A stretch of DNA of 62,486 nucleotides from Planctomycetota bacterium (GCA_023430365.1 JAEZAS010000509.1:1-62486); one strand, 5' to 3'. Shown: positions 807 through 46,365, counted from the first letter of the stretch. Notes: generated by a model from the sequence alone, not told the origin. Numbers and translations: made by a program.

Positions 807-910
807 GCAGGCTGGGGCCTCGCGGAAATAGAATAGCAGACGGGCGGCGGAGCGGAGTAGGGACGCGGCGGGTTGCCGACTTGGTTGCCGCTTCGCAAAG
901 GCGCGTGCGT

Positions 911-999
911 CCGGCGAGCGGGAGACGTGAGTCTCCCGGTGAAGTGCGATCGAGAGATTTGCGGAGGACCCGGGACGCTTACGCGTCCCGCTCGCCGGG
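911..999. repeat. Paired GNRA-hairpin palindromic element, copy A
   Basis: GCGAGCG-[GGGAGAC GTGA GTCTCCC]-GGTGAA ... CC-[GGGACGC TTAC GCGTCCC]-GCTCGCC. Two 7-bp-stem hairpins lie in opposite orientation; loops GTGA and GTAA (the latter read on the other strand). Confidence 0.7.
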
Positions 1000-1078
1000 G
1001 CCACAAACTTGACAAAGTCGTCAAGTTTCGTTAAATTGCAACCCAGTCCGTTTTCATCGCCCTGACAGGCTCTTTGCC

Positions 1079-2821
1079 ATGCGTGATTCCCGGTCCGCTT
1101 CGCTGCGACTTACGTCCCACCGTTTCGACGTAAGTGACCGGAGGTCGGCGCGGGAGGGTGTTGAACAACCGACGGGGTATATCAACAAGTATGGGGCCCC
1201 TGCACCCCGGGGGGGCGTTGATAAACCTCGGTGGTTTATCAACACGCGTCCCAGTGCAGCTCGGCGACTTACGTCGATCGCGAGCGTCGTAAGTCTGCTG
1301 CTGGCGGTGGTGGTCGGTGGTTCGGTCGGCTGCGGCGATCGGCCGGTGGCCGCGAAGATTCGCGAGGGCGAAGCGGCGACTGCTCCGACAAAAACCGCAG
1401 AGCCGGGGGCAGTCGCTCCGGCCTCTCCTTCGGTGCGAGCAGAACCGGCCGCAGAGGCGGATGCCGCTCCTGCCGTGGTCCAGGTGGCTCAAGCGCCCCA
1501 GCGCAACCAGTCGCCTGCGTCAGCAGCTCCGCCGACGCGTCGGTCCTTGGCGGACCTGGTTCAGCGGGCGGCGAACGAGGAATTTCGGTTGCCGCAGATC
1601 GACGAGGGCAAAGTTGCCGCGGCTGGGATTCGCAAGCTGGAAGGCAAGCACATCACGATCTACACCGATGTGCCCGCCGGGGACGAAGTGGATCAGCTTC
1701 CCAGGGTCTTTGATGCGGCGGTGCCGCTCTACTGCGAGCATTTTGAGCTCGATCCGGCGCAGGCGGCGGACTGGAAGGTGGTCGGCTATCTGGTGCAGGA
1801 CAAGGAGCGGTTTCAGGGGGCGGGGCTGTTTCCCGACGACCTGCCGCCGTTTCTCAATGGTTACACGCGCGGCTCCGAGTTCTGGTGGTACGAACAACCG
1901 AGCGACTACTATCGCCGGCACCTGATGATTCACGAGGGGGTGCACGCGTTCATGTTCCGCTGGCTCGGCGGGGCCGGGCCGCCGTGGTACACCGAGGGGA
2001 TGGCGGAGCTTCTGGGCACGCACCGGTGGCAGGACGGCAAATTGCAACTCGCCTACATGCCGCAGAACAAGGAAGAGGTCCCGTACTGGGGACGGGTGAA
2101 GATCATCAAGGATCAGTTCGCGGCGAATCAAGGGCTGCAACTGACCGACATCTTTCGCCTCGACGCCCAGGCCCATCTCCGCAACGAGGCCTACGGCTGG
2201 TGCTGGGCTGCGGCTCAGTTTCTCGCAGCCCACCCACTGACCCGCGACGCTTTCCAGAAGCTCAAGGACGATGTCAAGGATCGTTCGATCGACTTCTCCG
2301 TGCGGTTCTACGAGCAGCTCAAGCCACAGTGGCCCCAGATCGCCGAGGACTGGCAGTTGTTCATCGTGAATTGCGATTATGGCTACGACGTCGAGCGGGC
2401 GGCTGTCGCGCGCAAGGAAGCGGCCCCTCTGCCGGCCAGTGGCGGCACGGCGACGATTGCCGCCGATCGGGGTTGGCAATCGAGCGGCTTCCAGGTCGAG
2501 GCAGGGAAGACGTACCGAATTGAAGCGGCGGGGCAGTTCACGATTGGGGGCGACGAGGCGAAACCGTGGCTTTGCGAGCCCAACGGCATTACGCTGCACT
2601 ACCACCGCGGTCAGCCAATCGGGATGCTGATGGCGGGAATCAGCGAGGTGGATAGCACCGTGCGTGGCATGACGCCGCTGTCCCGGCCGGTGGCGATTGG
2701 CGCCCGGGGCGAGTTTCGGCCGGAGCATAGCGGCGTGTTGTATTTCTGCGTGAACGAGTCGCCGGCGGGGCTGGGGGATAATCGCGGGACGGTGGCGGTG
2801 CGGGTGGTGGCGGTGGAGTAG
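1079..2821 (+). CDS. Secreted HExxH (zincin-like) protein with a C-terminal beta-rich domain; the true start is probably near 1250
   Basis: ORF 1079..2821. The first ~170 nt are the translation of the repeat above and have no convincing start. Hydrophobic signal-like segment LTSIASVVSLLLAVVVGGSVGC at residues ~64-86; the motif HLMIHEGVHAF (HExxH); C-terminal GWQSSGFQVEAGKTYRIEAAGQF... domain. Confidence 0.6.
   Translation: MRDSRSASLRLTSHRFDVSDRRSAREGVEQPTGYINKYGAPAPRGGVDKPRWFINTRPSAARRLTSIASVVSLLLAVVVGGSVGCGDRPVAAKIREGEAATAPTKTAEPGAVAPASPSVRAEPAAEADAAPAVVQVAQAPQRNQSPASAAPPTRRSLADLVQRAANEEFRLPQIDEGKVAAAGIRKLEGKHITIYTDVPAGDEVDQLPRVFDAAVPLYCEHFELDPAQAADWKVVGYLVQDKERFQGAGLFPDDLPPFLNGYTRGSEFWWYEQPSDYYRRHLMIHEGVHAFMFRWLGGAGPPWYTEGMAELLGTHRWQDGKLQLAYMPQNKEEVPYWGRVKIIKDQFAANQGLQLTDIFRLDAQAHLRNEAYGWCWAAAQFLAAHPLTRDAFQKLKDDVKDRSIDFSVRFYEQLKPQWPQIAEDWQLFIVNCDYGYDVERAAVARKEAAPLPASGGTATIAADRGWQSSGFQVEAGKTYRIEAAGQFTIGGDEAKPWLCEPNGITLHYHRGQPIGMLMAGISEVDSTVRGMTPLSRPVAIGARGEFRPEHSGVLYFCVNESPAGLGDNRGTVAVRVVAVE
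1095..1300. repeat. MITE-like repeat with internal GTTGATAAACC-N6-GGTTTATCAAC palindrome, copy 1
   Basis: Contains palindrome 1218..1244, extra GTTGA(A/T)(C/A)AACC half-sites, a GGGGCCCCTG motif and several inverted ACTTACGTC modules. A related inverted copy lies at 53935..54130. Confidence 0.55.
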
Positions 2822-2830
2822 GCGCTGGTT

Positions 2831-2926
2831 GGCGAGCGTGACACGTGAGTGTCACGGTCAATCGGCGGTCGATGGTCGAAAACACCGTGACACTGACGTG
2901 TCACGCTCGCCGGTGTTTCACCGGTG
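2831..2926. repeat. Paired GNRA-hairpin palindromic element, copy B
   Basis: GCGAGCG-[GTGACAC GTGA GTGTCAC]-GG ...spacer... CC-[GTGACAC TGAC GTGTCAC]-GCTCGCC-GGTGTTTCACCGG. The stems differ from copies A and C but remain base-paired. Confidence 0.7.
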
Positions 2927-2951
2927 GTTTGTCGGGGATGGGAGCATTCGC

Positions 2952-4082
2952 ATGAGTGAGTGTGCTTCGTCCGGAGGGATCGAATCGCGGCAACTGGCCG
3001 AGTTGCAGCTTTGTTTGGTTTCGGGCGTGGGGCCGCGCACCAGGCAGCAGTTGCTCGAGCACTTCGGCTCGGCGGAGCGGGTGCTTGCGGCTTCGCTCGA
3101 TGAGCTGCGGCAGGTCAGCGGCGTGGGACCGAAGCTGGCGAAGAATATCGCCGCGGCCCGATCATGCGATGCGGCGGCCAAGGAGCTGGAACGCTGCCGG
3201 GCGAGCGGTGTGGCGGTGATGGTGCAGGGAAGCGACGGCTATCCACGGATGCTGGAAGAGATTCCCGATCCGCCGGGCGTTCTGTTCCTGCGGGGTGAGA
3301 TTCAGCCGTGCGACGGTCTGGCGCTGGCGATTGTCGGAACACGCCACGCGACGCCTTATGGCGTTGCCCAGGCGGAGCGGCTCGCCAGTGGTTTGGCGAG
3401 GGCTGGGTACACGATCATCAGCGGACTGGCGCGAGGGATCGATTCGGTTGCCCATCAGGCGGCCCTCGCTGCCGGCGGGCGGACGATCGCGGTGCTCGGC
3501 AGCGGGGTGCTGAACGTCTATCCGCCGGAGAACGACGCCCTGGCGAAGGCAATTGCGAAGAACGGGGCCGTGCTCAGCGAATCGCCTCCGTTGTCGCCGC
3601 CGCTGAGCGGAGCGTTTCCGCAGCGGAACCGGATTGTGACGGGGCTGAGCCTGGGCGTGATCGTGGTCGAGGCCTCGGACCGTTCGGGAGCCCTGATCTC
3701 GGCCCGGCATGCGTCGGAGCAGGGGAGGGAAGTTTTTGCGGTCCCCGGTCGGGTCGACAGCCGAACCTCGAAGGGCTGCCACCGTCTTTTGAAGGAGGGG
3801 GCAAAACTAGTCGAGTCGGTCGATGACGTGCTCGAGGAGCTTGGCCCGCTGGTCGATACGATGCAGGAACCGAGCGGGCGAGAGATTCGTCACCCCGCCG
3901 AGCTGCAACTGAACGAGCAGGAGCGGGCGGTGCTGGAGGCGATCGAAATGGAGCCGACCGGCATCGACCAGGTGGTCGTGGCCAGTCAGCTTGCGGTTTC
4001 GCGCGTTTTGTCGACGCTGAGCGCCCTGGAAGTGCGACGGTTGATCCGCAGAGTGAGCGGGAACCGGGTGGTGAGGGTGTAA
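2952..4082 (+). CDS. dprA: DNA-processing protein DprA (Smf)
   Basis: Rossmann-fold signature LAIVGTRHATPYGVAQAERLASGLARAGYTIISGLARGIDSVAHQAAL, an N-terminal helix-hairpin-helix/SAM-like region and a C-terminal winged-helix-like tail. The start is taken at the ATG at 2952; the upstream ORF part belongs to repeat B. Confidence 0.85.
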   Translation: MSECASSGGIESRQLAELQLCLVSGVGPRTRQQLLEHFGSAERVLAASLDELRQVSGVGPKLAKNIAAARSCDAAAKELERCRASGVAVMVQGSDGYPRMLEEIPDPPGVLFLRGEIQPCDGLALAIVGTRHATPYGVAQAERLASGLARAGYTIISGLARGIDSVAHQAALAAGGRTIAVLGSGVLNVYPPENDALAKAIAKNGAVLSESPPLSPPLSGAFPQRNRIVTGLSLGVIVVEASDRSGALISARHASEQGREVFAVPGRVDSRTSKGCHRLLKEGAKLVESVDDVLEELGPLVDTMQEPSGREIRHPAELQLNEQERAVLEAIEMEPTGIDQVVVASQLAVSRVLSTLSALEVRRLIRRVSGNRVVRV

Positions 4083-4092
4083 TAGGTAGTGG

Positions 4093-4118
4093 TCAGTTTT
4101 CAGTATTCAGTTTTCAGT
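4093..4118. repeat. TCAGTTTTCAGT tandem motif (family e)
   Basis: GGTCAGTTTTCAGTATTCAGTTTTCAGTGG directly after the dprA stop. The same motif is arrayed after cysK (55330..55495). Confidence 0.5.
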
Positions 4119-4373
4119 GGGTGGGGTTGTGATGGGAGGCTCGGGTTTAGGGGCAGGGCTTGGTTGAGCGGGCCACGCTGCGCTTAGGCCCCGGCATCCT
4201 GTGACTCCCGACTCGCGTCTGACACCTGTTTGCTGACTCCTGTCTTCTGCCCCTTGGATTTGCGGTAGTTTTGGCACGCGGGGTGCGTAGAATGAAATCG
4301 GCGACGCGGTTTCTGCCAGGTTGAGCCGGTCGACAAGCGCAGTCGCTTCTTATCTGTTTCGAAAGGAGAGTTC

Positions 4374-4760
4374 GTGGCCAGCACCTTAAGCGCCCAGGCA
4401 ATTCAGTCGGATCCCCAGCACAGCCTCAATCTCGCCCTCGCGGCGGCGCGCAGTGCGGAAGAGAATCGCGGCCAGGACGTGGTCGTGCTCGACATGCGGG
4501 ATCAAACCGCCATCTTCGACTACTTCGTGGTTGCGACTGGCACCAGCCAGCGCCAACTGCGAGCCATGGGGGACGCGATCGACGACGTGCTGCAGAAAGA
4601 ACTCGGCCACACGCGGATGGGTACCGAAGGGTACAAGGACAGCAAGTGGCTATTGCTCGATTACGGCTCGGTCGTGGTGCACCTGTTCGATGGTCCGATG
4701 CGCGAGTACTACGCGATTGAGGACCTGTGGGCAGGGGCGAAGAAGGTCGAGTGGAAGTAG
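4374..4760 (+). CDS. rsfS: Ribosome silencing factor RsfS (Iojap)
   Basis: DVVVLDMRDQTAIFDYFVVATGTSQRQLRAMGDAI...WLLLDYGSVVVHLF is typical RsfS. GTG start preceded by AAGGAG. Confidence 0.85.
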   Translation: MASTLSAQAIQSDPQHSLNLALAAARSAEENRGQDVVVLDMRDQTAIFDYFVVATGTSQRQLRAMGDAIDDVLQKELGHTRMGTEGYKDSKWLLLDYGSVVVHLFDGPMREYYAIEDLWAGAKKVEWK

Positions 4761-4908
4761 GGAAGGGTTCGCAGCCGGGAGATAACATCTCCCGGAGAAC
4801 CGCGAGTGGACATCGCATTGCGGCGCGATTACGCTGACCGTTTTCGTCCCTTGAGTGTCCAATCGCAATTCTCTGGAGCGTGGTTACGCTCCGGCTACGG
4901 AGCTTGCC

Positions 4909-5802
4909 ATGACTGCTCTTTCTCGCCGCAATTTCCTGGCGGCTTCGGCTGCCACTCTTGCCGCGACCTCGTCGCTTTCTGCCATCGAGCCGATCGCGCG
5001 CAACGGTCAGCCAAAGTTCAAGTTCAGCCTGGCAGCCTACAGCTACCGAAGCTTGCTGACCGGCGAGAACCCGCAGCTCACGCTCAACGACTTCGTCGAT
5101 GATTGTGCGAAGTTCGGCCTCGAGGGGACCGAATTGACGTCGTACTACTTTCCCAAGGGCGTCACGCACGACTACCTGCGCTCGCTGAAGCGGCAATGCT
5201 TTCGGTTGGGCTTGGATGTCTCGGGGACGGCGGTGGGGAACGACTTCGGCGTGGCTCCGGGACCAGCGCGAGACAAGCAAATCGCTTCGCTGAAGCAGTC
5301 GATCGACTTCGCCCAGTCGCTCGGGGCTCCGGTGATCCGGGTCTTTGCCGGCCATACGCCCAAGGGGGAAACGGCGCCGGCGGAGGTGCACTCGCGGATG
5401 GTGTCGGCCATCGAGGAGTGCTGCGACTACGCGGGGCAGCGGGGCGTGCACCTGGCGCTCGAAAACCACGGCGGACCGACGGCGACGGCGGAAGGCTTGC
5501 TGAAGTTCGTGCAGGACGTGCAGAGCCCGTGGTTCGGCGTGAACCTGGATACGGGGAACTTCCACTCGGACGACATCTACGGCGAGCTGGAGCGGGTTGC
5601 GCCGTATGCGCTGAATGTGCAGGTGAAAGTGGTCGTGAGCGGTCCCGACAAGAAGAAGCAGCCGACCGACTACAAGCGGATTGCGAAGCTGCTCCGCGAC
5701 TCCAACTACCGCGGCTACGTCGTGCTCGAGTACGAAGAGAAGGGCGATCCGCGGGAAGAGTGCCCGAAGCACCTGCAGGAGCTGCGCGAGGCGTTTGCGT
5801 GA
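4909..5802 (+). CDS. Sugar phosphate isomerase/epimerase (xylose-isomerase-like TIM barrel) with a Tat signal
   Basis: Twin-arginine leader MTALSRRNFLAASAATLAATSSLSA, then a TIM-barrel AP-endonuclease/xylose-isomerase-like region (GLEGTEL..., HLALENHGG, NLDTGNF). Confidence 0.75.
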   Translation: MTALSRRNFLAASAATLAATSSLSAIEPIARNGQPKFKFSLAAYSYRSLLTGENPQLTLNDFVDDCAKFGLEGTELTSYYFPKGVTHDYLRSLKRQCFRLGLDVSGTAVGNDFGVAPGPARDKQIASLKQSIDFAQSLGAPVIRVFAGHTPKGETAPAEVHSRMVSAIEECCDYAGQRGVHLALENHGGPTATAEGLLKFVQDVQSPWFGVNLDTGNFHSDDIYGELERVAPYALNVQVKVVVSGPDKKKQPTDYKRIAKLLRDSNYRGYVVLEYEEKGDPREECPKHLQELREAFA

Positions 5803-6238
5803 GAGGGGGAGAGGGAAGGGAGGAGAGGGACAAGGGACAAGAGATAAGGGATTACGGCGGGAGTTGGTCGAGAACCACGAGCCTCTTGGGTCTGAACTCT
5901 AAGCTCTGCTCTCTGAACTCTCCGGCCCAAACTTTTTATTTCGCGCGAACCTTTGGGGGCTGGCTAGGTCTATTCTGTCGGCCAGCGCGAAATGCCTTTT
6001 CCGAACGCGTTCCCCGCGGCGATTCGACGAGTAACGAGAACGACTGGCGGATGAGAGAAACGTCGAATGCGCAAAACCGGCCAGATTTTCCTCTTGCCAG
6101 AATTGTGCCCCCTGACAATTATGAGATTGACGGGCCGTGCCACGCAGCACGGCAGGACTAGGGCCCGAACTAGATCGCTTCTTCGGCCGCGATCGAACCG
6201 GGGACAACTTAGTTGGAAAGGAGGTGGTCTAGTGAGTT

Positions 6239-6310
6239 ATGTCTGTACCAGCCGAGGTGGCGCCGCTTAAAGAGCCGGCGGGCTGTTTAGGCAGCCACCA
6301 CCCTCGTTGA
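6239..6310 (+). CDS. Candidate 23-aa small ORF (MSVPAEVAPLKEPAGCLGSHHPR)
   Basis: Strong SD AAAGGAGGTG 8 nt upstream of the ATG; stop at 6310; rho-independent terminator 30 nt downstream; sits inside a 500-nt gap that has no other gene. Confidence 0.25.
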   Translation: MSVPAEVAPLKEPAGCLGSHHPR

Positions 6311-6339
6311 GATCACTAGATCTTTTACGAGCTACCTGG

Positions 6340-6374
6340 GACCCGGCCTTCGCAAGAGGGCCGGGTCTTTTTTT
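6340..6374 (+). terminator. Rho-independent terminator
   Basis: GACCCGGCC-ttcgcaagag-GGCCGGGTC followed by TTTTTTT. Confidence 0.65.
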
Positions 6375-6599
6375 GCGCGCTTGGTAGGAGCTTGAGGCGC
6401 TGGGAGACTGCGGCCGGGAGTTAATAGCTCCCGGAGATGGGCGGAGGGCGTATCCACTGCAGAGTGTTGTGGACGAGGGGGCGCGAACGATTGCCGCGAC
6501 GCGTGGGCACCCATTCGGCTTCGAACCGAATTCACTTGGCAGAGTGTCTCGGTGGTTCTCCGGAGCGTGCTACGCTCCGGCTATGGATCGGATGTTCTG

Positions 6600-7478
6600 C
6601 TACTCGGCGCCGGCGGTGACCTGGGTCACGTCGGAGGCGTCGAGCGTCAACTGCATGCCGTTGTAGGCGCTCCCCGCGCGGTGGCTGGCGTGCCAGAGGG
6701 TTTCCATCTCGGCGAGGCCGTTGATGTGGTACACATCGCGGAGGGCTTTGTCGTAGCCGTGCTCCATCGCCCGCTGCACGAACGTGACAAACCGCGAGGG
6801 ATCGTCCCGGCGGGCGAGGAAGCTGACCAGCGAGGCACTCTGACCATAGAAAGCGGGAATGCGTTCGCGAGACGGATAATCGTCGAGCGTCAGCAGCTCC
6901 GCACAGCGGAAGGCGGAGCGGCGTTCGAGGCTGACGATCAGATCGCGCTGATGAAGCTGCTGCTTGGTTTCGTCATCGGCGAGGATGGCCACGCCTTCGT
7001 CGATCCAGCGGGGCGGCTGCCGGCCCTTGAACAGGTCGGCGAAGATCACATGAGTCATCTCGTGGGCCAAGGCCGAGAGGGGCTCTCCGGTTTGGCCCAA
7101 GAGATCGATCCGGCGAAGCGTCACGCGGGCGCCGGAGAACTCGATCGAGCAGGTTCCCAGCGTCTGCACCGCGCCCGTCCCGACGGCAGCCAGGTAATCC
7201 CGGCGAGTGGCGTGGATCACGATTCGACAGCGAGGTTCCCAGGCCGAAGTTTTGGAGCTGCCGCACCAGAACGAGTGCAATCGCTCGCGCCAGCGTTCGC
7301 AATGGACCGCCACATCGCGGGCGTCATGCGCCGAGCAGTTGCTGAACACGGCGAAATTGGTCGATCCGGCGACCCGGGCATCACCAGCAACAGCGGGAGC
7401 GGGCGAAGCAGCGTCTGCACGGGTAGTGCTCGACGTTGCACCGGCAACGACGAGCAATAGAGCGGTCGTCATCCACAC
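6600..7478 (-). CDS. Secreted HExxH zincin-like protein (second paralogous type)
   Basis: Signal peptide MWMTTALLLVVAGATSSTTRADA; ALAHEMTHVIFADL (HExxH) with a downstream WIDEGVA. The reverse strand is chosen over the overlapping + ORF, which lacks motifs. Confidence 0.55.
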   Translation of the reverse strand: MWMTTALLLVVAGATSSTTRADAASPAPAVAGDARVAGSTNFAVFSNCSAHDARDVAVHCERWRERLHSFWCGSSKTSAWEPRCRIVIHATRRDYLAAVGTGAVQTLGTCSIEFSGARVTLRRIDLLGQTGEPLSALAHEMTHVIFADLFKGRQPPRWIDEGVAILADDETKQQLHQRDLIVSLERRSAFRCAELLTLDDYPSRERIPAFYGQSASLVSFLARRDDPSRFVTFVQRAMEHGYDKALRDVYHINGLAEMETLWHASHRAGSAYNGMQLTLDASDVTQVTAGAE

Positions 7479-7893
7479 GGTCGAATTCCCTTCGATCCAA
7501 GGCGGGAGCGCACTCAGTTGCGCTTGATGATCGAGTGCCTAAGTCAAACCGCGCGCCAAAGCGCGCAGTGGCTCTATCCCATCCATCGGCTGGCATATGC
7601 AAAGCAAGGCAGCGTCGAGCCTTGCGAATGTGTGCAAAATGTCGCCATCACAAAGTGCTAGCGATAGTCGCGAGTGGAATGCCCGATTGTGAGGCGGCGT
7701 TTGCCTCGGTTTTCAGCAGATGGCGCAACTTGTGCAAAGCTGGACGCTTCACCGTGGAAGGCGGCGATTTGCACGGTCGGGGAAACTTTGATCAAGGACT
7801 CCCCGCCGATCGGCCGCACGCGGGAATTTGAGATGAGCCGTTTTCAATGGACGGCGCAGGCCCAGGCAAGGCTCTTTCACAGTGAGGTGACTT

Positions 7894-8346
7894 ATGAAGG
7901 CGGGATGGAAAATCGCGCTCGCGATCTTAGTTGCGGCGGCGGGCATGCCACTGGCGGCTAGTGCGGGCCACGGGCGTCATCACCACGGTGGCGGATATGG
8001 GTATGGAGGCGGGTACGGGGGCAACTGCAGTTGTGGCGTGCAGGTGCAGTACGCGCCGCCGGCTCACGCACAGTACGGCGAACCCACTCCAGCCGTGGCG
8101 CAAACGGGAACCGGCTACCGTTCGTTCTCCTATAGCCCGACTCCGACCGAAGGAGTTCAGCAAGCTGCGGCCGTCGCTTCGACCCCGGCGATGATTGCCC
8201 CAAGCTATTACCCAGCCTATGCGGGCTACGGCGCGGGTTACTACGGCGGCGGGTATTCCTACGGCTCGAATTGGGGTGCCCGGGTTTATAACAACGTGTC
8301 GAACAAGACACTTGGCCGCCACGACTATGGCCTGGGCCGTCGCTAG
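7894..8346 (+). CDS. Secreted Gly/Tyr-rich low-complexity protein
   Basis: Signal peptide MKAGWKIALAILVAAAGMPLAASA, then HHHGGGYGYGGGYGG and GYGAGYYGGGYSYG repeats. GTGAGGTGA lies 4 nt before the ATG; a terminator lies downstream. Confidence 0.5.
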   Translation: MKAGWKIALAILVAAAGMPLAASAGHGRHHHGGGYGYGGGYGGNCSCGVQVQYAPPAHAQYGEPTPAVAQTGTGYRSFSYSPTPTEGVQQAAAVASTPAMIAPSYYPAYAGYGAGYYGGGYSYGSNWGARVYNNVSNKTLGRHDYGLGRR

Positions 8347-8376
8347 CTCAAAACCCGTAGTCCAAGAACGCAAAAA

Positions 8377-8409
8377 GCTCCCAGCGACTTTCCGCCTGGG
8401 AGCTTTTTC
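8377..8409. terminator. Bidirectional rho-independent terminator
   Basis: AAAAAGCTCCCAG-cgactttccgc-CTGGGAGCTTTTT, with an A-run before and a T-run after. It lies between the convergent genes 7894..8346(+) and infC(-). Confidence 0.65.
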
Positions 8410-8437
8410 ACTTTTGTCAGAGCATGGAGCGTTTGAG

Positions 8438-8944
8438 CTACCGGGGCATCAAGGTGGCAATCATGCGCTTGGCTTGCTGCTGCGGCGGGAACTCCAGCTT
8501 GCCCACTTCCAGCAGCTCGTTGACCACCTTATCCATCACCTTCCGGCCCTCGTCGATGTGAGCGAGTTCGCGACCGCGGAAGATCACAGAGACCTGCACT
8601 TTGTCTTTGTGCTGCAGGAAGCCCTTCGCCTGCTTGATCTTGAAATCGATATCGTGATCGCCGGTCTTGGGACGAAGGCGGATTTCTTTGGTCTTCGTCT
8701 GATGCGTGGTTTGGTGGGACTTCTTTTTCTTTTCGTACTTGTACTTGCCGAAGTCCATGATGCGGCAAACGGGTGGTCGCTCGTTGGGAGCAACTTCCAC
8801 GAGATCCAAGTCCTCAGCCCGGGCGCGAGCCAACGCATCGTCGGCCGACAGGATGCCCAACTGAGAACCGTCGCTGCCAATCACACGCAGTGGTGAGATA
8901 CGAATCTGCTCGTTCACACGAGTCGTAATCCGGTCGATCGCCAT
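8438..8944 (-). CDS. infC: Translation initiation factor IF-3
   Basis: [24 protein letters not shown]...[24 protein letters not shown]...[21 protein letters not shown] aligns along the whole length with IF-3. Start set at the ATG MAIDR (8944); IF-3 is known to use atypical starts, so the exact start is uncertain. Confidence 0.85.
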
Positions 8945-9332
8945 AACCCCCTTTTTGTGGTCAAGGAAAAGATTGGTAGTACCCCGCTCAGCCGGCCTGC
9001 CATCCATCACAAGCGTAGCATGCGGACAATCGCATAAGTATGACGCTTGGACAGCCCAAACGTCAACAGCTACCTGAGCGACAAGGGTGTCAATTTCGCG
9101 CAATTCGCCGATTCGGTCGCCCTGCACCGGACGCCCAGCGGCGAGGCCGGGAGGTTGCGCTCGCCCCCGTGCTACGTCGGTGGAGTCCAGTCCCCCTCGT
9201 CCCAGGACCGCCGAGCGACCGTGGTACGGGGTTTGCTTCCACGGTGAATGTCGTTGACCCATTTTCTCGGGGGTCTGCGCCGCAGTGTGCGGCGGGCTCC
9301 CGAACGTACAAATCGGCAGAGGAGACTAGGTT

Positions 9333-18873: not shown

Positions 18874-18876
18874 GGT

Positions 18877-32388: not shown

Positions 32389-32985
32389 GTTTACTCCTCC
32401 AGTCGTGCCTGCTGCCGCGTGTGCAGCAGACAGTAGCCGACCAAACAAAGGACCGACCGAGTCATAGTCCGCCGCTGACGGTTGGTTCCGTCGGCCTGCC
32501 TTGCGAAGGACCGCGACTCAACTAGGTAATAGCTCGCCTCGCCATCGTCTTCCCGTGTGCAGGTAACCGCGAATCCACCGGAGCGGATTCAGCGGAACAC
32601 CCCTTCGGTAGCTCGGCTTCCGACATGAACCTCGCAGCTCATGGCGGCCCGTGGCTTTGCGCACTCGGCATTGCTGCCGGTTTGCCCTTATCGGGGATGT
32701 GAGGCGGCAGGCCATCACAGGATCCGTCAGCCACATTCCGGCGAAGCAGCTAGTGCTTCGTGTTTTCCGGAGGCGGCTGACGCTCCCACGGTCAGCGTCA
32801 CTTCGATGTCTAAGCACCGCAGTGAACCCTGACACCGCAAACCTAGGTCAACTTTGCCGGGTGTCAAATTTGGGGCTTTAGGGAATTCAGAAGATTCTTT
32901 GCGGTTTTTCGCCCGCGCATCTCATGCAGCAGCGGAGCAACCGGCAGAATCGTTAGAAGCAGGCCCCGGGGGGCGTTCCCAACGT

Positions 32986-37864: not shown

Positions 37865-37869
37865 CGCCG

Positions 37870-39051: not shown

Positions 39052-39155
39052 GGAATGGGTCCGGTACGAAGTGAGGCAAGCAAAACGCCAAGACAGTACA
39101 ACGAGCAAGGGGCCGAGACGAGTCTCGACCCCATCTGCAACTAAAAACGTCGCCG

Positions 39156-40346
39156 CTATTCGACCTTCCGCGGCTCGTAGGAGTGATCGCGTTTGCGGAT
39201 CACTTCGGCCGAGAGAATGCGATCGGGCTCCGGCAGCGGCGGCTGGCCCTGCGGGTCGCGACGCTGGATCTTGGCGAGCACATCCATGCCTTCGATCACA
39301 CGTCCGAACGCCGTGTGCTTGCCGTCGAGTTCGGGCGTCTGGCGGAACGTGATGAAGAACTGGCTGCCGCCGGTGTCCTTGCCGGCGTGGGCCATGCTGA
39401 GAGTGCCGCGGAAGTGGCGGCGATACTCGGGCTTATAGCATTCGCAGAAAATCTGATAGCCGGGACCGCCGGTGCCGTCCCCCTTGGGATCGCCCCCTTG
39501 AGCCATAAAGTTCTGCAGTACGCGGTGGAAGGTCAGGCCGTCGTAGAACTTGTCCTCCACAAGCTTGACGAAGTTGCCGACCGTGTCGGGAGCCTCGTTC
39601 TCGAAGAGTTCGAGGACGATCTCACCCTTGTTGGTCGTCAGCTTCACGCGAGGCAGGTCGTTGGCCTCTTCCTCGGCCTTGCGGATTTCCTGCTCCTTTT
39701 CCCATAGCTGCTTTTCGATATCGACGCTGGAGGCCAGCTGCATGCCGTAGGACGACAGAGCGCCGGCTTCCTGGGCTTTGGTGAAGTATTCCTTCGCCTT
39801 GTCGTAGTCGTTCATCACGAAAGCGGCGACGCCGGCCGAGTCGTAGACCGACTTATCGTCGGCTTCGTTCTCGATGAGCGTCTGCGAGATCTCGGCGGCG
39901 GCTTCGTAGTCGTCACGGGCGACGGCGTCGGAGGCCATCTTCGTCAGGAAGCGGGCAAGTTCGAGGTCGGCGTTGGGAGACTCAACGTAGGCCTTGCGAG
40001 CCGCCTCGGTCAGCTTGGGAAGCAGTTCGGTGCCGCTTTTAACCCGGGCGGTCCACTGCTCGTTGAGTTGCTTTTGATCCGCCGACGAGGCAGTGACGTA
40101 CTGAGCTTTCAGCTTGCGCATGTCCTTGAGCAGCGTTTTCCACTGCGTGAACAGCTGGTCGAACTCGGCAGCGGCCGGTTTATCGGCGTTGCCTTTCTCG
40201 GCAGCCGGAGGAGCTTTTGCAGCCGGCGGCTGGGTGGGAGGCTGAGCGGGATTGGGCTGAGCAAAAACCAAAGCGGGCATACCGACGCAGGCAACCGCAC
40301 CCAGGACGGCTGCCCGGGTCAGGAAGTGCGAGAACCAGGCTTGCAT
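39156..40346 (-). CDS. Secreted TPR-repeat plus cyclophilin-type peptidyl-prolyl isomerase (paralog 2)
   Basis: Same architecture; cyclophilin core [25 protein letters not shown] ... [20 protein letters not shown]. Tandem duplicate of the previous gene. Confidence 0.8.
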
Positions 40347-40570
40347 GAGCGAATGCTCCGGAATGATGAATCGTTTGCCTAAAGTGTAACACCTTAGCAT
40401 GTTCGGGCCTGTCCGTGGAACCGCCGCAGGGCACCTGGGGGCGAAACGGACCAGCCGCCTTGTCGAATTGGGCAAGGGCGGCAAAACTTCTTTACGCAGC
40501 TTGCCGGGGCGATGGTTCGCTCCAGGGGTCGTTGCGAGAGGCAAATTCCGTCCTATCGGAAGGCGAAGAC

Positions 40571-41260
40571 GTGGCAAAACGGCGGCGAACCGAGCGACGA
40601 CGCAAAGAGTCCGAGGAATTGGACTCCGCCGACGCCTCGAAGCGGGAGGATGAGGGGCGTAAAGGTCCTGCCGACGAGCGGGCGCCCGTCGGCTTGCGCA
40701 TCATCGGCGGCAAGCATCGCGGCCGGACGCTGCAGTACAGCGGCGACATGCGCACCCGGCCGATGAAGGATCGCGTGCGGGAAGCGGTGTTCAACCTGGT
40801 TGGTCCGGACATCAAAGGGATGCACGCGATCGACCTGTTCGCCGGCACCGGGGCGCTCGGACTCGAGGCGATGAGCCGAGGCGCGGTAGGGGTGACGCTC
40901 ATCGAACGCCATCTGCCCACCACCAAGATTATCGAACAGAACGCCGCCGTCATTGGGGTCGAAGCGCAAACCAACGTCATCTTCGGCGACGCCTTTCGCT
41001 GGGCGAAGAACCCCACGGCGCCGGGCGATGTGCCGTGGGTCGTCTTTTGCTGCCCACCTTATGAGTTCTATGTCAGCCGGCAGCAGGACATGCTCGACCT
41101 CGTGAGTCGCCTGATGGAAAAAGCGCCGGCCGGCAGCGTGTTCGTTGTCGAAGCGGACGAACAATTTGACATGAGCCTATTGCCCGGCGGCGAGATCTGG
41201 GATGTCCGCAGATACCTGCCCGCCGTGGTGGCCATCGCGAGCAAGGAACAGCCGAAATGA
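40571..41260 (+). CDS. rsmD: 16S rRNA (guanine966-N2)-methyltransferase RsmD-like
   Basis: [37 protein letters not shown] ... [18 protein letters not shown] ... VFCCPPY. Start uncertain (GTG at 40571; the ORF extends to 40415). Confidence 0.7.
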
Positions 41261-42195
41261 ATCAGACCGCAAATCAACACTTTGCCGACCGCCTCTGCCG
41301 CGAAATCCAGCGCAAGGGAAACCCGGTGCTGGTGGGCCTCGACCCGCGCACGCAGTCGCTGCCGGCCGGCCTGATCCAGGGCGAGGGCTATCAGGCAATT
41401 GCCCGCGGCTATTCTGCCTTCTGTCGCGGGGTGATCGACGTGGTGTCGCCGCTGGTTGCCGCAGTGAAGCCGCAGGCTGCCTTCTTCGAACAACTGGGCC
41501 CCGCAGGATGCACGGCGCTCGCGGAAGTGATCCAGTACGCCTCCCGCATAGGACTGCTCGTCATCGTCGATGGCAAGCGGAACGACATCGGCACCACTGC
41601 GGCCGCCTACGCCGAAGCGTACCTGGGCCCGGGTGAAACAAGCCCCTGGGGCGGCGACGCTTTGACGGTCAGCCCTTACCTCGGGGACGATAGCCTTACG
41701 CCGTTTATCGACACCGCGAAGCAGCGAGGGGCCGGCATCTTCGTCCTCGTGAAGACCTCGAATCCGGGCGGGCGAACGTTTCAGGATCTGCTCGTCGACG
41801 AACTGCCGCTCTATCGCCACGTGGCGACGCTCGTCGAAGGACTCTCGAAAGAAACGGCCGGCGAGTTTGGCTACGGAATCGCCGGCGCGGTGGCGGGAGC
41901 AACCTACCCGCAGCAACTGGGTGAAATCCGTCAGGCGATGCCCCACTCGCTGCTTCTGATACCAGGCTATGGCGCTCAAGGCGGCACCGCGAAGGACTGC
42001 GCCCCTGCGTTCGACGAGCGAGGTTTGGGGGCCATCGTGAACAATTCGCGCGGGATCATCTTCGCCCATCAAAAGGCGGAGTATAAGGAGCGGTTTGGTG
42101 AGAGTCGGTGGCAGGAAGCCGTGGAAGCCGCCACACGCGACATGATCGATCAATTGGCCGCCGAAACCACGGCGGGTCGGTTGCAACGGTCGTAG
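41257..42195 (+). CDS. pyrF: Orotidine-5'-phosphate decarboxylase (type 2)
   Basis: VLVGLDPR, VKPQAAFFE, VIVDGKRNDIGTTAAAY and LIPGYGAQGG are hallmarks of long-form PyrF. ATGA overlap with the rsmD stop. Confidence 0.85.
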   Translation: MNQTANQHFADRLCREIQRKGNPVLVGLDPRTQSLPAGLIQGEGYQAIARGYSAFCRGVIDVVSPLVAAVKPQAAFFEQLGPAGCTALAEVIQYASRIGLLVIVDGKRNDIGTTAAAYAEAYLGPGETSPWGGDALTVSPYLGDDSLTPFIDTAKQRGAGIFVLVKTSNPGGRTFQDLLVDELPLYRHVATLVEGLSKETAGEFGYGIAGAVAGATYPQQLGEIRQAMPHSLLLIPGYGAQGGTAKDCAPAFDERGLGAIVNNSRGIIFAHQKAEYKERFGESRWQEAVEAATRDMIDQLAAETTAGRLQRS

Positions 42196-42345
42196 CGGCT
42201 ACGACGAGGGCGGCGGACGCGGAGTTACTGCGAGGCGGGTGCTAAACTTGCCAGTGGTTCCAACTCCGTGGCGAATGACCATGCCTGAATCCCAATGACT
42301 TAAGTCTTTGGGACCTCGGCTTGGCCGTTTTGCACCTGATCGACT

Positions 42346-43245
42346 TTGCGAAGGCCCTCTCGCATGCGCAGCTTTGTTTTTGGATTGCTTGTCTTCGGCC
42401 TGACTTCCTCATCGCTGGCGATCGACATCTTTGTCGACAATCGCAACGGCGACGATCGGCGAAACGGTCGCACGCCGACTTCGCAGGGAGCGGCGAGCGG
42501 GCCGGTGCGCTCGATCGAGAAGGCGATCCGCCTCTGCAGCGGCGGGGGCGATCGGATCATCCTGATCAACTCGGGCGAACCGTACCGCGAGCAGGTCGCC
42601 ATCCAGGGTCCTCGCTGCAGCGGCACCGCGGATCTGCCGTTTGAGATCATCGGCAACGGCTGCGTGCTCGACGGCCGAACGTCGCTCGTCGAAGCCCAGT
42701 GGGAGCATCACCGCGGCGACATCTTCCGCGTGCGTCCTGGCTACATGAGCTATCAGCAGGTGTTCCTCGGCGACGCTCCTCTCGTGCGGCGTTATTCGGT
42801 CGACGGCCTGGTTCCCCAGCTAAAGCCGCTGGAGTGGTGCCTGCTCGACGGCTACATCTACTTCCGCACGGAGTCGGACCGGCTGCCGGAGTCGTATGAC
42901 CTTTTCTGCTGCGGCGGCAAGACGGGCATCACGCTTTACAACGTCCACGATGTTGTGATTTTGGACCTGACGATCCGCGGTTTTCACCTCGACGGTCTGA
43001 ACGCTCACGACAACGTCCGGCGGACCGACATTCTGGGGGTCACGAGCCAGCACAATGGCCGGAGTGGCTTCAGCGTCGGCGGCGCTTCGCGGGTGCGCAT
43101 CGAAGACTGTGCCGCGGCAGGCAACGGCGAGGCCCAGGTGCGGACCGAGGGCTATTCGATCACGCAGTTGAACCGCGGCGCCTTTGATGCGGCTTCGGCC
43201 CCCGCCTTGGTGCAAGACGGCGGCCGAGTGATTTCGAAGAAGTAG
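42346..43245 (+). CDS. Secreted right-handed parallel beta-helix repeat protein
   Basis: Signal peptide MRRPSRMRSFVFGLLVFGLTSSSLA; repeated GxxGxxV turns (ILINSGEPY, VVILDLTIRGFHLDGLNAHDN, GVTSQHNGRSGFSVGGAS). Confidence 0.6.
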   Translation: MRRPSRMRSFVFGLLVFGLTSSSLAIDIFVDNRNGDDRRNGRTPTSQGAASGPVRSIEKAIRLCSGGGDRIILINSGEPYREQVAIQGPRCSGTADLPFEIIGNGCVLDGRTSLVEAQWEHHRGDIFRVRPGYMSYQQVFLGDAPLVRRYSVDGLVPQLKPLEWCLLDGYIYFRTESDRLPESYDLFCCGGKTGITLYNVHDVVILDLTIRGFHLDGLNAHDNVRRTDILGVTSQHNGRSGFSVGGASRVRIEDCAAAGNGEAQVRTEGYSITQLNRGAFDAASAPALVQDGGRVISKK

Positions 43246-43264
43246 AGAACCCGGCGAGCTACGT

Positions 43265-43906
43265 CTAGTCCCGGACCAGCGGTACAAACCGGCAGAGCGT
43301 GAGCGCCTGCCCCTCGGCCTTGCCCGCCACCTTGTGAAAGGCGTAGAGCGTCTGTTCTTCGGACGTTCCCAGCGGAGCAACGAGAATCCCGCCTTCGCGC
43401 ATTTGCTTCCAGACTTCCTCGGGAACTTCCGGGGCCGCCGCTGCGATCAGGCAGCGGTCGAACGGAGCCGCCTCCGGCCAGCCGAGCCCCCCGTCGCCGA
43501 CACGAAGATGGACGTTGCGATAGTCGAGCCGCTCCAGCCGTTCCGCCGCCTGCTGAGAGAGCGGCGCGTGACGCTCAATGCTGTAAACCTCCGCAGACAG
43601 CTCAGCGAGCACCGCGGTCTGATAGCCACTGCCGGTGCCGATCTCCAGCACCCGCTCGCGGCCGGTGAGTTGCAACGCCTCGGTCATCAGCGCGACGATA
43701 TATGGCTGGCTGATCGTCTGGTGGCAATCGATCTGGAGGGCGCGATCGGAGTACGCTTCGTCGCGCACGGCTTCCGGAACGAAGCTTTCGCGCGGCACGC
43801 GCTCCATGGCGGCAAGGACCGCCGACGAGCGGATCCCTCGACGACGTAAATGCTGATTGAGCATCTCGGCGCGGGCGGAATCGAACTCACTCGACGGCTG
43901 TCTCAT
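43265..43906 (-). CDS. pcm: Protein-L-isoaspartate O-methyltransferase
   Basis: QTISQPYIVALMTEAL, VLEIGTGSGYQTAVLA and DRCLIAAAAPEVPEEVWKQMREGGILVAPLG are typical PCMT motifs. Confidence 0.85.
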   Translation of the reverse strand: MRQPSSEFDSARAEMLNQHLRRRGIRSSAVLAAMERVPRESFVPEAVRDEAYSDRALQIDCHQTISQPYIVALMTEALQLTGRERVLEIGTGSGYQTAVLAELSAEVYSIERHAPLSQQAAERLERLDYRNVHLRVGDGGLGWPEAAPFDRCLIAAAAPEVPEEVWKQMREGGILVAPLGTSEEQTLYAFHKVAGKAEGQALTLCRFVPLVRD

Positions 43907-43940
43907 GGCGGAAAGGGCGAGCTATTGACGTGCCGATGGG

Positions 43941-44681
43941 TCAGAAATCGATCTGTTGGTCGTCGAAGCCGATCTCGATTCTGGGAAAGATGTTTTTCAC
44001 CTCGTCCAGTGGCAGCGGCTCCATCGACCGCTCCAACGGATTGGTGTGCACCAGCACGAGGCGACCGACCTGGGCTTCCGCGGCCAGGCGGGCCACGGGG
44101 GTCAGGCAACTGTGCCCCGTTTTCTCGGCCCAGGGTCCCCAGTCGTCGGTGAAGTAGCACTCGTGCACTAGCACATCGACGCCGCGAATGTGCTCCCGGT
44201 ATTCGATCCCGCTCCCGGCCGTCGTATCGGTGACGTAGGCGAGCGAGCGGCCCGGCCAATCGAGGCGATAGCCGACCGCTCCCCCCGGGTGCGTAAGTGG
44301 AAACGAGCGCAGCACGCCGCCGTCGCGCAGCGGCACTTCGCGTTCGAGCGGCCGCCAGTCGATCGGCGGCATTGCGGGAAAGAGTTCCTGGGCAAACAGA
44401 TGCTTTTGAATCGCCGCCAGCTTCTGAGGCTCGCCATGAACCACGGCCCGTTCGACCGCTTGCTGGTAGAGGATGTCGAACAAATAGGTCAGGCCGATGA
44501 CGTGGTCGAGGTGCGCATGGGTCAGGAAGATATCGAGCCCGCCGGGGCGCAGGTGCTCGCGCACGCGGTACAAGGCGGTCCCCGCATCGAGGACGACGCC
44601 GATTTCCGGCAGCATCAAACACGAGGTCTGCCGACGATCGGTCGGATGGTAGCCCGAGGTACCCAGCAGGAGGAGTTTCAT
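43941..44681 (-). CDS. MBL-fold metallo-hydrolase
   Basis: THAHLDHVIGL (HxHxDH) and downstream Asp/His ligands (AYVTDT, VHEC). Confidence 0.75.
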   Translation of the reverse strand: MKLLLLGTSGYHPTDRRQTSCLMLPEIGVVLDAGTALYRVREHLRPGGLDIFLTHAHLDHVIGLTYLFDILYQQAVERAVVHGEPQKLAAIQKHLFAQELFPAMPPIDWRPLEREVPLRDGGVLRSFPLTHPGGAVGYRLDWPGRSLAYVTDTTAGSGIEYREHIRGVDVLVHECYFTDDWGPWAEKTGHSCLTPVARLAAEAQVGRLVLVHTNPLERSMEPLPLDEVKNIFPRIEIGFDDQQIDF

Positions 44682-44838
44682 GGCGTCAAGGTAACGGCCC
44701 GCCGAGCGGCGGACAATTGATGCCGGCGGGTGGCGAGAAGAATTGCCGCCGTAGCTGGATTCGCCAGAATTCAGACAAACCAGGCCCTCAACTCGCAGGG
44801 CGTCTGAATTCTGGCGAATTCAGCTACGGGGAGACTCT

Positions 44839-46008
44839 TTATCGTTCGAGCATTTTGAACGCTTCGAGGACCTTACCGCGGTGCTGGCTGCCGAAGACCA
44901 GAACCATCAGCTGGGTCATGATCTGCCGCTGGTCGGTGGTGAGAAACGCCTCGCCGCCGCCCGCCATGGCGATTTCGTAGAACTCGGGGAGCGGTTCCGA
45001 GTCGCGGCAGGTCACCGTGCTGACGATTCCTTTGTTCTGGCCGCGGAACGCCCGGGCATAGTCGACGCAGGTCTTCGTTTTCTCGGGATGCGGAGGAGCG
45101 TCGCCGAAGATGAGGATCATCTTGCGGGCGTTAGGGCGAAACCGATTGTTGTGCATCGACCAGTAAAGTCCTTCCTCGACCGCTTCGGGATGATCGCCGC
45201 CGCCGCCGGCTTCGACCTTTTCGAGAAAGGCTTTCAAATCCTGCACGTTGCTCGTGAGCGGAATGCCGCGGACGACATAATCGTCGTCGGTGTCGCGATA
45301 GGTGCAGAGGCTGATGCGGGCCTTGGGGACGAGGGTCAGCAGCGTGGTGCCGATGCGATCGATCTGGTCGGTCACCTGGTCGATTTCGCCCGACATACTG
45401 CCGGTGCTGTCAAAGCAGATGACAATGTCGAGCCCATTGCGGCGGAGCGACTGCAGCATGCCGTCCCAACTGCCGCCGCCCATCGAACCGCCGATTTGCA
45501 CGGAGCCAAGGTCGAATGCGCCGGCGCTGGCGCCGCTCGGCGACGGGGTCGCGAGCGTCAGGTCGGTGGCCCCTTCGGAGGTGGAACCACCGAACGCCGC
45601 GGGGGACTCGATCTCGAGCATCGGCTCGAGTTCTTCGCGAGGATGATCGCTGACGACCTCGTCGGTGACCAGCTGTTCTTCCTGCCGATCGGTCAGCGTT
45701 TCGGAGGGGAGGATGCCGACGAGCACATCGTCGGTCGTTCCTTCGCCGCTTCCCCCTTCGGTCTGCATGAGCGCGATCACGACCAGAATGGTCATGTGGA
45801 TCAGCAGCGAGCCGATGCCGGAGATGGAGTTCTCCAGCCAACCGCTCGGAGCGCGGCGCGGCGGGGCTCCTTGCGCGGCCACCGACGGGGCGGGTTCCGC
45901 CCGCGGAATGGTGACCGGCTTGCGGCAGTGGGGGCAGAGACCACGCGTGCCGAGTTGCTCGGGCGTGATGACGAACCGGCCACCGCAATGAACGCAGACA
46001 ATCTTCAT
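44839..46008 (-). CDS. Membrane-anchored vWA-domain protein with an N-terminal zinc ribbon
   Basis: CVHCGGRF...CPHCRKP zinc ribbon; one TM helix; vWA/MIDAS VICFDSTGSMSGEI ... ISLCTYRDTDDDY. Confidence 0.7.
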   Translation of the reverse strand: MKIVCVHCGGRFVITPEQLGTRGLCPHCRKPVTIPRAEPAPSVAAQGAPPRRAPSGWLENSISGIGSLLIHMTILVVIALMQTEGGSGEGTTDDVLVGILPSETLTDRQEEQLVTDEVVSDHPREELEPMLEIESPAAFGGSTSEGATDLTLATPSPSGASAGAFDLGSVQIGGSMGGGSWDGMLQSLRRNGLDIVICFDSTGSMSGEIDQVTDQIDRIGTTLLTLVPKARISLCTYRDTDDDYVVRGIPLTSNVQDLKAFLEKVEAGGGGDHPEAVEEGLYWSMHNNRFRPNARKMILIFGDAPPHPEKTKTCVDYARAFRGQNKGIVSTVTCRDSEPLPEFYEIAMAGGGEAFLTTDQRQIMTQLMVLVFGSQHRGKVLEAFKMLER

Positions 46009-46087
46009 ACGCTTATTGTCCGTGCGGGGAGCGGGCGGGTCAACAAAAGAGCGGAGGCGAGCGGGCAGGGTCGCAACATTGCTGCAC

Positions 46088-46176
46088 CGGCGAGCGGGAC
46101 GCGTGAGCGTCCCGGGTGCTCGCGGCGACGAGTGGTTCGCGTTTCACCGGGAGACTTACGTCTCCCGTTCGCCGGA
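46088..46176. repeat. Paired GNRA-hairpin palindromic element, copy C
   Basis: GCGAGCG-[GGGACGC GTGA GCGTCCC]-GGGTGCTCGC ... GTTTCACC-[GGGAGAC TTAC GTCTCCC]-GTTCGCC. Confidence 0.7.
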
Positions 46177-46365
46177 GGCCCAGGCGTTTTTCAGCAAAAC
46201 TCGTCGGCGAAAGTAGTAGGCACACCCCGTGTGCCGTGACTCACACGGACGACGGCAGAGGGCGTGTGCCTACTACTTAGCTGTCGCATGGTGTTATCAT
46301 GGGCGGCCGAGCGGCGAACCGATTTGCCGCGGTTCCTTGTTTGCGTTTCCCGATTGATCCCACCT

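Follow-up and report, generated by a model that had tools for sequence, protein, structure and literature searches.

What is the paired hairpin that recurs three times, each time between genes, in a stretch of planctomycete DNA? The window analyzed here is that whole stretch, 62,486 nt from a Planctomycetota bacterium (GCA_023430365.1 JAEZAS010000509.1:1-62486); positions follow its numbering throughout, c1, c2 and c3 denote the three copies, and L-numbers denote other loci with which they were compared. A first-pass annotation made from the sequence had read the copies as RNA (or cruciform) structures. We reject RNA in favor of a DNA element whose foot, hairpin, doublets, clusters and lack of target-site duplication match the anatomy of repetitive extragenic palindromes (REPs) and of REP doublets forming hairpins (REPINs). 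Our preferred interpretation, held with moderate confidence, is that the three copies are short, non-autonomous palindromic DNA repeats of the kind that comprises REPs, bacterial interspersed mosaic elements (BIMEs) and REPINs, found only in Planctomycetota in our sample.

Three inverted hairpin doublets in the window

Each copy is a pair of inverted 26-28-nt units with their feet pointing outward, and each unit is a hairpin. The three copies could be read in the sequence where the first-pass annotation had placed them, and when the whole window was scanned, filters off, with a covariance model built on the unit, only their six units scored 36-43 bits, the next match reaching 18.5 bits. In this unbiased scan all six units lay in foot-out doublets. 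The copies and their neighbors are as follows.

913-996, copy c1: left unit 913-940 (+), spacer 941-968, right unit 969-996 (-)
913-940 (+), c1 left unit: GGCGAGCG GGAGAC GTGA GTCTCC CGGT, 43.2 bits with the unit model
969-996 (-), c1 right unit: GGCGAGCG GGACGC GTAA GCGTCC CGGG, 39.9 bits with the unit model
about 177-805 (-) and 1079 (+), neighbors of c1: a divergent membrane-protein gene and the start of a gene for a 580-aa protein
2831-2911, copy c2: units 2831-2858 (+) and 2884-2911 (-), stem TGACAC/GTGTCA in both, 36.3 and 37.2 bits with the unit model
2821 and 2952, neighbors of c2: stop codon of the 580-aa gene and ATG of dprA
2911-2926, small palindrome CCGGTGTTTCACCGG: abuts c2, not a constant part of the family
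46089-46173, copy c3: first unit 46089-46116 (+), stem GGACGC, loop GTGA, 39.6 bits
46146-46173 (-), c3 second unit: foot GGCGAACG, stem GGAGAC, loop GTAA, 41.7 bits
44839-46008 (-) and 46264 (+), neighbors of c3: a divergent VWA gene and the start of a xylose-isomerase-like gene

The common layout is CC-GGCGAGCG-(6 nt)-GTRA-(6 nt complementary)-CGG, a spacer of 27-31 nt (27 nt in c2), and CCG-(6 nt)-TYAC-(6 nt complementary)-CG(C/T)TCGCC-GG; in c1 the CC/GG lengthens the palindrome to 911-998. Two folds are open to a complete copy when single-stranded, a pair of small hairpins or a single long one. The energies predicted for all three copies fall 4.9-8.7 standard deviations under those of shuffled sequences (z = -6.3 for c1, -7.7 and -8.7 for c2). 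Loops in the window are GTGA (three), GTAA (two) and GTCA (one), the loops of c2 being GTGA and GTCA. The plus strand of c1 aligns with the minus strand of c3, with a common stem order, GGGAGAC then GGGACGC, and a common inner CGGTGAA. Copies c1 and c3 are one subfamily in opposite orientation, and the six hairpins of the window therefore have three stem types, GTGACAC occupying both arms of c2.

As the annotation had stated, all three copies are intergenic, c1 and c3 between divergent genes and c2 between a stop codon and dprA. The window holds three doublets in 62 kb at irregular spacing, two within 2 kb and then 43 kb with none. A mini-palindrome that had been described as adjacent to every copy does abut c2, but in c1 and c3 the sequence in question, CCGGTGAA, is the inner flank of one unit and no constant part of the family. 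Only in c2 (2911-2926) does it fall outside the element, and the window shows no enrichment of it (4 observed against 2.7 expected); the palindrome beside c2 is possibly the tail (CCGGTGAA) of a lost third unit.

A family with this unit among Planctomycetota

One genome per species, 185,579 species in all, was scanned with a pattern that fixed the feet, the GTNA/TNAC loops and CGG/CCG and left 24 stem positions free. This yielded at least 117 loci in about 50 assemblies. Among the matches listed, all were labeled Planctomycetota except one unclassified "Bacterium" record; the labels were Gemmataceae/Gemmata/Frigoriglobus, Pirellulaceae/Pirellulales, Planctomycetaceae/Planctomyces, Planctomycetia and Planctomycetota, and one locus came from a Kuenenia metagenome-assembled genome (MAG). 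A single Frigoriglobus MAG carried the element on at least 16 separate contigs. As for the window itself, homologues of its 580-aa protein are annotated Pirellulaceae and Anatilimnocola, and a contig of the MAG GCA_023428825.1 also carries the gene for that protein.

A more tolerant unit scan of 914 kb of related loci found 290 units, whereas the same sequences reversed gave none. The units formed 109 foot-out doublets (of about 154 clusters, in loci selected by the doublet pattern), 17 singles and a few dozen clusters with 2-5 members; tandem units and clusters of 3-5 also occur. At L054 4420-6529, in a Gemmatales MAG, nine units lie within 2.1 kb, with no transposase between the clusters. 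No specific description of a planctomycete REP, REPIN or similar in-frame palindromic element was found in the searchable literature, which is absence of evidence only.

Stems covary around a constant foot and loop

Across 248 half-sites the unit is 28 nt long, with the consensus GGCGA(G/A)CG-G-NNNN-Y-GTNA-R-NNNN-C-CGG-T: an unpaired 5' foot GGCGA(G/A), a stem, a GTNA loop and a 3' GT. The stem had been given as 7 bp; counting the pairs that the final CG of GGCGAGCG forms with the CG in CGG, it is 8 bp, made of CG and six variable pairs. The T after CGG is 97% conserved, though unconstrained in the search pattern. Outside GGCGAGCG there is no conservation across the 248 half-sites, and the element therefore ends there. 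In its usual form the element comprises two inverted units around a poorly conserved spacer of 15-45 nt.

The free 6-nt stem was perfectly complementary in 131 of 262 hairpins, where the chance of a perfect complement is 1/4096, and had one mismatch in 111. The family holds more than 80 stem variants. For 86 units with distinct stems, 92.6% of cells were paired, compared with 74% in shuffled sets and 25-54% when partners were slid; all six free pairs changed on both sides (double changes), and none of 500 shuffles reached the observed values. Hairpin structure is preserved, not stem sequence, by selection or by the copying mechanism. This bears out the earlier proposal of selection on structure rather than primary sequence. 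Pairing is likewise maintained over differing stems, as had been noted, but two of the three copies, c1 and c3, have the same stem types, being one inverted subfamily. The supposedly constant GNRA loop has to be replaced by GTNA: family-wide the loops are GTCA (115), GTGA (64), GTAA (58) and GTTA (25), and 53% are not GNRA.

Strong stem covariation and very stable predicted folds are also properties of a structured RNA, here a cis-regulatory element of 5' or 3' untranslated regions or a small RNA of two tetraloop hairpins. The placement of the window copies, intergenic and upstream of three genes, would agree with this, as would a G.U-compatible wobble excess on one strand of each unit. We nevertheless consider an RNA very improbable. 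The commonest loop, GTCA, and also GTTA are not GNRA. Moreover, the two units of a copy have their conserved feet on opposite strands, the element being symmetric on both strands, and a single transcript can therefore present just one of them in the conserved orientation. Wobbles on the foot strand comprise 44 G.T against 17 A.C (2.6-fold), so each unit seems to matter on its own strand. When Rfam was searched at gathering and permissive thresholds, no family reached threshold at the copies, which matched only generic long-hairpin microRNA models and, below threshold, Acido-Lenti-1. T-run terminators do not follow the hairpins.

Two further identities were rejected. An intrinsic terminator does not fit hairpins that lack T-runs, in two of three copies between divergent gene starts. 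Nor do the copies resemble an integron attC, a dif-like site or the operator of a dimeric regulator, as their ends are not RYYYAAC/GTTRRRY and their stem half-sites differ between copies.

Copies are absent from syntenic relatives and lack target-site duplications

Relatives with an HExxH protein 61-79% identical to that of the window keep the gene order membrane protein, HExxH protein, dprA, rsfS and xylose-isomerase-like gene. In three such syntenic relatives the orthologous spacers lack the units, at the site of c1 in L206-L208 and at the site of c2 in L206 and L208. The c1 site is bracketed by landmarks common to the relatives, TAGAATAGCA on one side and a TTGACA -35 box on the other, and c1 ends 13 nt upstream of this conserved -35 box of the downstream gene. 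The TAGAATAGCA motif (window 828-840) is conserved in the L206-L208 spacers upstream of the HExxH protein gene, and a promoter-like TTGACA-17-TAAATT at 1009-1037, also upstream of that gene, is common to the same three loci.

Other repeats occur in these spacers. L206 has a long inverted repeat, CTACGGAGCTGAATTCGCCAGAA...TTCTGGCGAATTCAGCTCCGT, at 4625-4712, and L207 has GGTGAAAAAC/GTTTTTCACC pairs at 2690-2790, each in a spacer matching an element-bearing spacer of the window. In relatives, different repeats seem to accumulate at the spacers where the window has c1 and c2.

The absence of the copies from syntenic relatives and the position of c1 upstream of a conserved -35 box further weaken the case for RNA. 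In the original phrase "RNA (or cruciform)", RNA fails on the loops, the opposite-strand feet and the absence in relatives, and cruciform was the better half of the guess. Since an RNA or cis-regulatory role is unsupported, the link of the copies to the three downstream genes is probably incidental.

Dispersal with presence or absence between relatives is also expected of an ordinary miniature inverted-repeat transposable element (MITE), in which a DDE transposase encoded by an insertion sequence elsewhere in the genome would bind 26-nt terminal inverted repeats in double-stranded form, and a length of about 80-100 bp with 26-nt terminal inverted repeats would suit one. We judge this unlikely. 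Flanking direct repeats of 2-9 nt were at chance level in 124 copies, and there is therefore no target-site duplication. The stem, which is most of the repeat, varies freely as long as it pairs with itself, and a protein reading double-stranded sequence would not allow that. In addition, units occur singly, in tandem and in clusters of 3-5, and no full-length element with these ends was found in the 914 kb of loci.

Copies reside in frame within protein-coding genes

Among 106 doublets with enough flank, 19 (about 18%) lie in coding-like open reading frames (ORFs) that continue for at least 240 nt on each side. Fourteen host proteins carrying 16 doublets were confirmed by Pfam, with domains on both sides of the insert. 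Hosts include UvrA (two copies), an AcrB-family pump, valyl-tRNA synthetase (ValRS), leucyl-tRNA synthetase (LeuRS, two copies), MetH and a Ser/Thr kinase; further hosts are an AddB-like helicase-nuclease, a VWA protein, three PSCyt2/PSD1 proteins, an aldehyde:ferredoxin oxidoreductase and an FAD oxidase. Five examples, all from different planctomycete MAGs, are located as follows.

L072 3477-3559: DnaA, insert in the linker between the N-terminal and ATPase domains
L013 2724-2818 and 3423-3517: UvrA, two in-frame doublets
L091 3016-3104: MetH, in-frame doublet
L037 5567-5645: ValRS, in-frame doublet
L032 1523-1612: AcrB-family pump, in-frame doublet

Coding copies occur in either orientation, and in the aldehyde:ferredoxin oxidoreductase gene of L054 two tandem units are read in frame. 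Translation of the units gives ASGGRQPPG or RAGGVSPPV from one end; from the other it gives TGGLTPPAR, DTGRSP or GLRPPLA. These last three are the same kind of peptide as THVSRSP, which the first-pass annotation had pointed out in misleading ORF extensions at the window copies and which is indeed present. In-frame copies in many unrelated genes and in both orientations, with a placement neither conserved nor oriented relative to genes, are again not what a structured RNA would show.

In Planctomycetaceae, LeuRS ranges from 884 to 1088 aa at 65-90% identity (L059 2267-5167 (-), L102, proteins P0001-P0120). Two of its loops are hot-spots that hold recognizable element peptides, decayed inserts or none, depending on the relative. 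In the DNA of site 1, L059 has an 81-nt doublet where two orthologues about 90% identical have a 78-nt gap and no element. For one LeuRS with inserts, the quality of an AlphaFold model (mean pLDDT 62) was too low to place them. A variant unit at site 2 of L125 (about 1430-1560), GGCGAGCG GCAGGGC GTCA GCCCTCC GAG, has a variable stem arm of 7 nt and is read as ASGRASALR...GGLTPNRSP. The fixed-length pattern misses such 7-nt-arm subfamilies, and the family is therefore larger than counted.

Recognizable units thus persist at two LeuRS loops among orthologues 65-90% identical, with diverged spacers, and several planctomycete families retain the foot and loop although their stems drift. Both observations would suit a structural DNA site that is no longer mobile and is maintained by the host, as a site for a nucleoid, topoisomerase or recombination protein or as an mRNA-stabilizing hairpin. 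For the BIMEs of E. coli, chromosomal or mRNA-stabilizing roles have been proposed. Such maintenance is compatible with a mobile origin and no strict alternative to it, but we regard it as improbable, if a little less so than a MITE: positions are not conserved between close relatives, copies sit in coding loops of unrelated proteins and the window shows no positional regularity.

Comparison with known palindromic repeats

The element resembles the REPs, BIMEs and REPINs of E. coli and Pseudomonas (Nunvar 2010, Bertels & Rainey 2011, Ton-Hoang 2012, Di Nocera 2013, PMC3733652) in its conserved unpaired 5' foot and short hairpin, in inverted doublets foldable into one long hairpin, in its clusters, in the lack of target duplication and probably in its many dispersed copies. 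The genome also encodes a single-locus REP-associated tyrosine transposase (RAYT), the HUH-Y1 type of enzyme that acts on REPs. REPs and REPINs are short stem-loop palindromes of 20-40 nt, and the unit has 28 nt; their prevalent form is the inverted doublet, as for six of six window units. They are extragenic, as are the three window copies but not 19 of the 106 doublets elsewhere. Unlike theirs, no cognate RAYT flanked by the element's own repeats was present in the loci searched. The element differs from known REPs in its foot, in the one foot and loop common to several families of the phylum while stems vary, and in its frequent in-frame residence in essential genes.

The layout recurs in repeats of class 3 TnpA-Y1 (Quentin, Siguier, Chandler & Fichant 2018, PMC6006769), a small class (NHVH ... 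Y----Q) reported mainly from Planctomycetes and Acidobacteria. Atypical hairpins lie on either side of the class 3 genes; their foot is CnGA, and they reach up to about 600 copies per genome. The repeats of Solibacter usitatus in Table S1 of that paper (e.g. CCGAG-CCGCGACT-GTCA-AGGAGCGG) have GTCA, GTAA and GTTA loops. Both kinds have ...GAG, an 8-nt stem arm and then a GTNA loop (layout NNAG + 8 bp + GTNA). When aligned on the stem, however, the feet are C-n-G-A-G in S. usitatus and G-C-G-A-G in the element, the first base differing from CnGA, and the Solibacter stems carry tandem G.A, whereas those of the element are fully paired. Planctomycete repeat sequences, doublets and coding insertions are not in PMC6006769.

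The small-RNA motif Acido-Lenti-1 (RF01687) has, on its opposite strand, a first hairpin of TTAG, an 8-bp stem and GT(C/G)A, the same geometry as the unit; it differs in its foot, in a second small hairpin and in being described as a small RNA. The GGCGAGCG units score under the Acido-Lenti-1 gathering score, those of c2 at 18-19 bits. The ends of IS200/IS605 insertion sequences (TnpA-Y1) likewise have subterminal hairpins that are read as single-stranded DNA, strand-specifically and with no target duplication, and they serve as the mechanistic model for our proposal below. In IS200/IS605, however, a transposase gene lies between the ends and the left end is unlike the right, whereas the element ends in near-identical inverted units with no gene between them.

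In behavior, there is a parallel with Rickettsia palindromic elements (RPEs), palindromic repeats that lie in frame within protein-coding genes, housekeeping genes included, and add short peptides while the protein is kept. Ogata and colleagues reportedly described them in 2000. The likeness is the in-frame presence in functional coding genes, which is Pfam-confirmed here. RPEs measure about 100-150 bp and have no foot-plus-tetraloop unit; the planctomycete element is shorter and mostly intergenic, its hosts are free-living with GC-rich genomes, and kinship in sequence is not expected.

A RAYT in the window and the search for a mobilizing enzyme

The window encodes a RAYT, an HUH-Y1 protein that matches NCBIfam NF047646 at 88.8 bits (cutoff 80) and E. 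coli RayT in phmmer at 1.5e-5, with the motifs NHCH, WQ and YLHLNP. In five assemblies it is a single locus with the same neighbors. The features of this region are as follows.

52435-53028 (+): RAYT, 197 aa
52290-52329 and 53063-53102: perfect 40-nt inverted repeat bracketing the RAYT, the only two copies in the window
53126-53171 (+): full Rfam match to Acido-Lenti-1, about 100 nt downstream of the RAYT

On sequence grounds this RAYT is only a candidate trans-acting enzyme for GGCGAGCG units, and as a different REP flanks it, the mover of the GGCGAGCG element is not assignable to it. Its family was rejected as partner of the element, there being no GGCGAGCG units at 80 homologue loci. ORFs between adjacent elements (L006, L013, L027, L054, L059, L060, L094, L102) were also considered as transposases and rejected; they are ordinary genes carrying or flanked by elements.

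Several findings weigh against a REP-type origin. The intragenic share of about 18% is unlike classical REPs, whose foot is GT[AG]G or CGTC and not (GG)CGAG. The arrangement counts outside the window come from a pattern that demands doublets and are biased toward them. The spacers of c1 and c3 are unrelated in sequence, so the two did not simply arise by recent copying from one master doublet. The arms flanking the RAYT are a canonical REP of another type, with a GTGG foot, a 13-bp stem with a T.T mismatch and a TACT loop, and 80 metagenomic loci of RAYT homologues (245 kb) contained zero GGCGAGCG units. Finally, the search for a Y1 gene with GGCGAGCG units at its flanks gave none: the 914 kb around elements held no Y1-like ORF, a strict class 3 regular expression gave nothing, and a looser Y1 expression with phmmer (E. 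coli RayT, window RAYT) recovered the window RAYT only.

In two of the 80 homologue loci, hairpins of CGAG (or CCAG), an 8-bp stem and GTGA or GTAA do lie beside the RAYT homologue, for example CGAG-CCGCGAAC-GTAA-GTTCGCGG.

L164 about 1780-1810: CGAG/CCAG hairpin
L186 about 523-560, 647-680 and 2660-2730: CGAG/CCAG hairpins

They have CGAG-CCGCG in common with the Solibacter class 3 repeats and, judged by sequence, look like a sister family of the GGCGAGCG units. Their position beside RAYT homologues links the architecture of CGAG, 8 bp and GTNA to Y1 enzymes in general.

The Acido-Lenti-1 match near the window RAYT has REP geometry on its opposite strand (TTAG, an 8-bp stem and GTGA), and this "sRNA" motif may itself be a REP. 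In L128 two inverted Acido-Lenti-1 copies, 477-522 (-) and 722-767 (+), lie about 1.7 kb upstream of a RAYT homologue; a match to the motif was present in only 1 of 20 RAYT loci scanned.

A proposed mechanism of spread

What the DNA shows directly is the anatomy of the units, their covarying stems, the constancy of foot and loop, the doublets, the lack of target-site duplication, presence or absence in close relatives and the in-frame copies. From these we infer active transposition, carried out on single-stranded DNA by an enzyme of the Y1 type. In the single-stranded state, each unit would fold into a hairpin on the strand that carries its foot. A structure-specific HUH-Y1 tyrosine nuclease or transposase, supplied in trans, would then read the foot, the stem shape and the loop. 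It would cut beside the doublet, whose inverted units would serve as left and right ends, and rejoin it into new single-stranded targets with no target duplication. Copies would survive where harm is small, in intergenic spacers as in the window, or in frame where a protein has a loop or linker that tolerates them. The stems would covary because the hairpin, and not the stem sequence, must be kept, and repair within the hairpin is a possible further source of covariation.

A bolder version, which we advance only tentatively, is that these are ancient, Planctomycetota-wide REPIN-like replicators (GGCGAG foot, GTNA loop) moved by a Y1-type enzyme, possibly of class 3, that routinely enter essential genes in frame and drive length variation of the LeuRS type, as a free-living, large-genome counterpart of RPEs. 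If this is true, DnaA, UvrA, LeuRS, ValRS and MetH gain peptide loops of the ASGGRQPPG...TGGLTPPAR type.

For annotation, the repeats are a source of falsely extended ORFs, and they account for unusual peptide inserts and for differences in length among planctomycete proteins. For mobile DNA, they would extend REP/REPIN systems, with a different foot, to a phylum where these are barely described, and recognition features that persist across families bear on how long replicators survive. Class 3 HUH-Y1 proteins are uncharacterized, and the elements offer a concrete way in. For protein evolution, the in-frame copies in DnaA, aminoacyl-tRNA synthetases and UvrA are a natural experiment on selfish palindromes seeding surface loops. 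The discovery of RNA motifs calls for caution, as covarying hairpins can be DNA elements, which may apply to the Acido-Lenti-1 "sRNA" beside the RAYT.

Other features of the window

Two further structures reached the Rfam gathering threshold.

32604-32696 (-): c-di-GMP-I riboswitch, 49.1 bits
33272-33355 (-): tRNA gene, 84 nt

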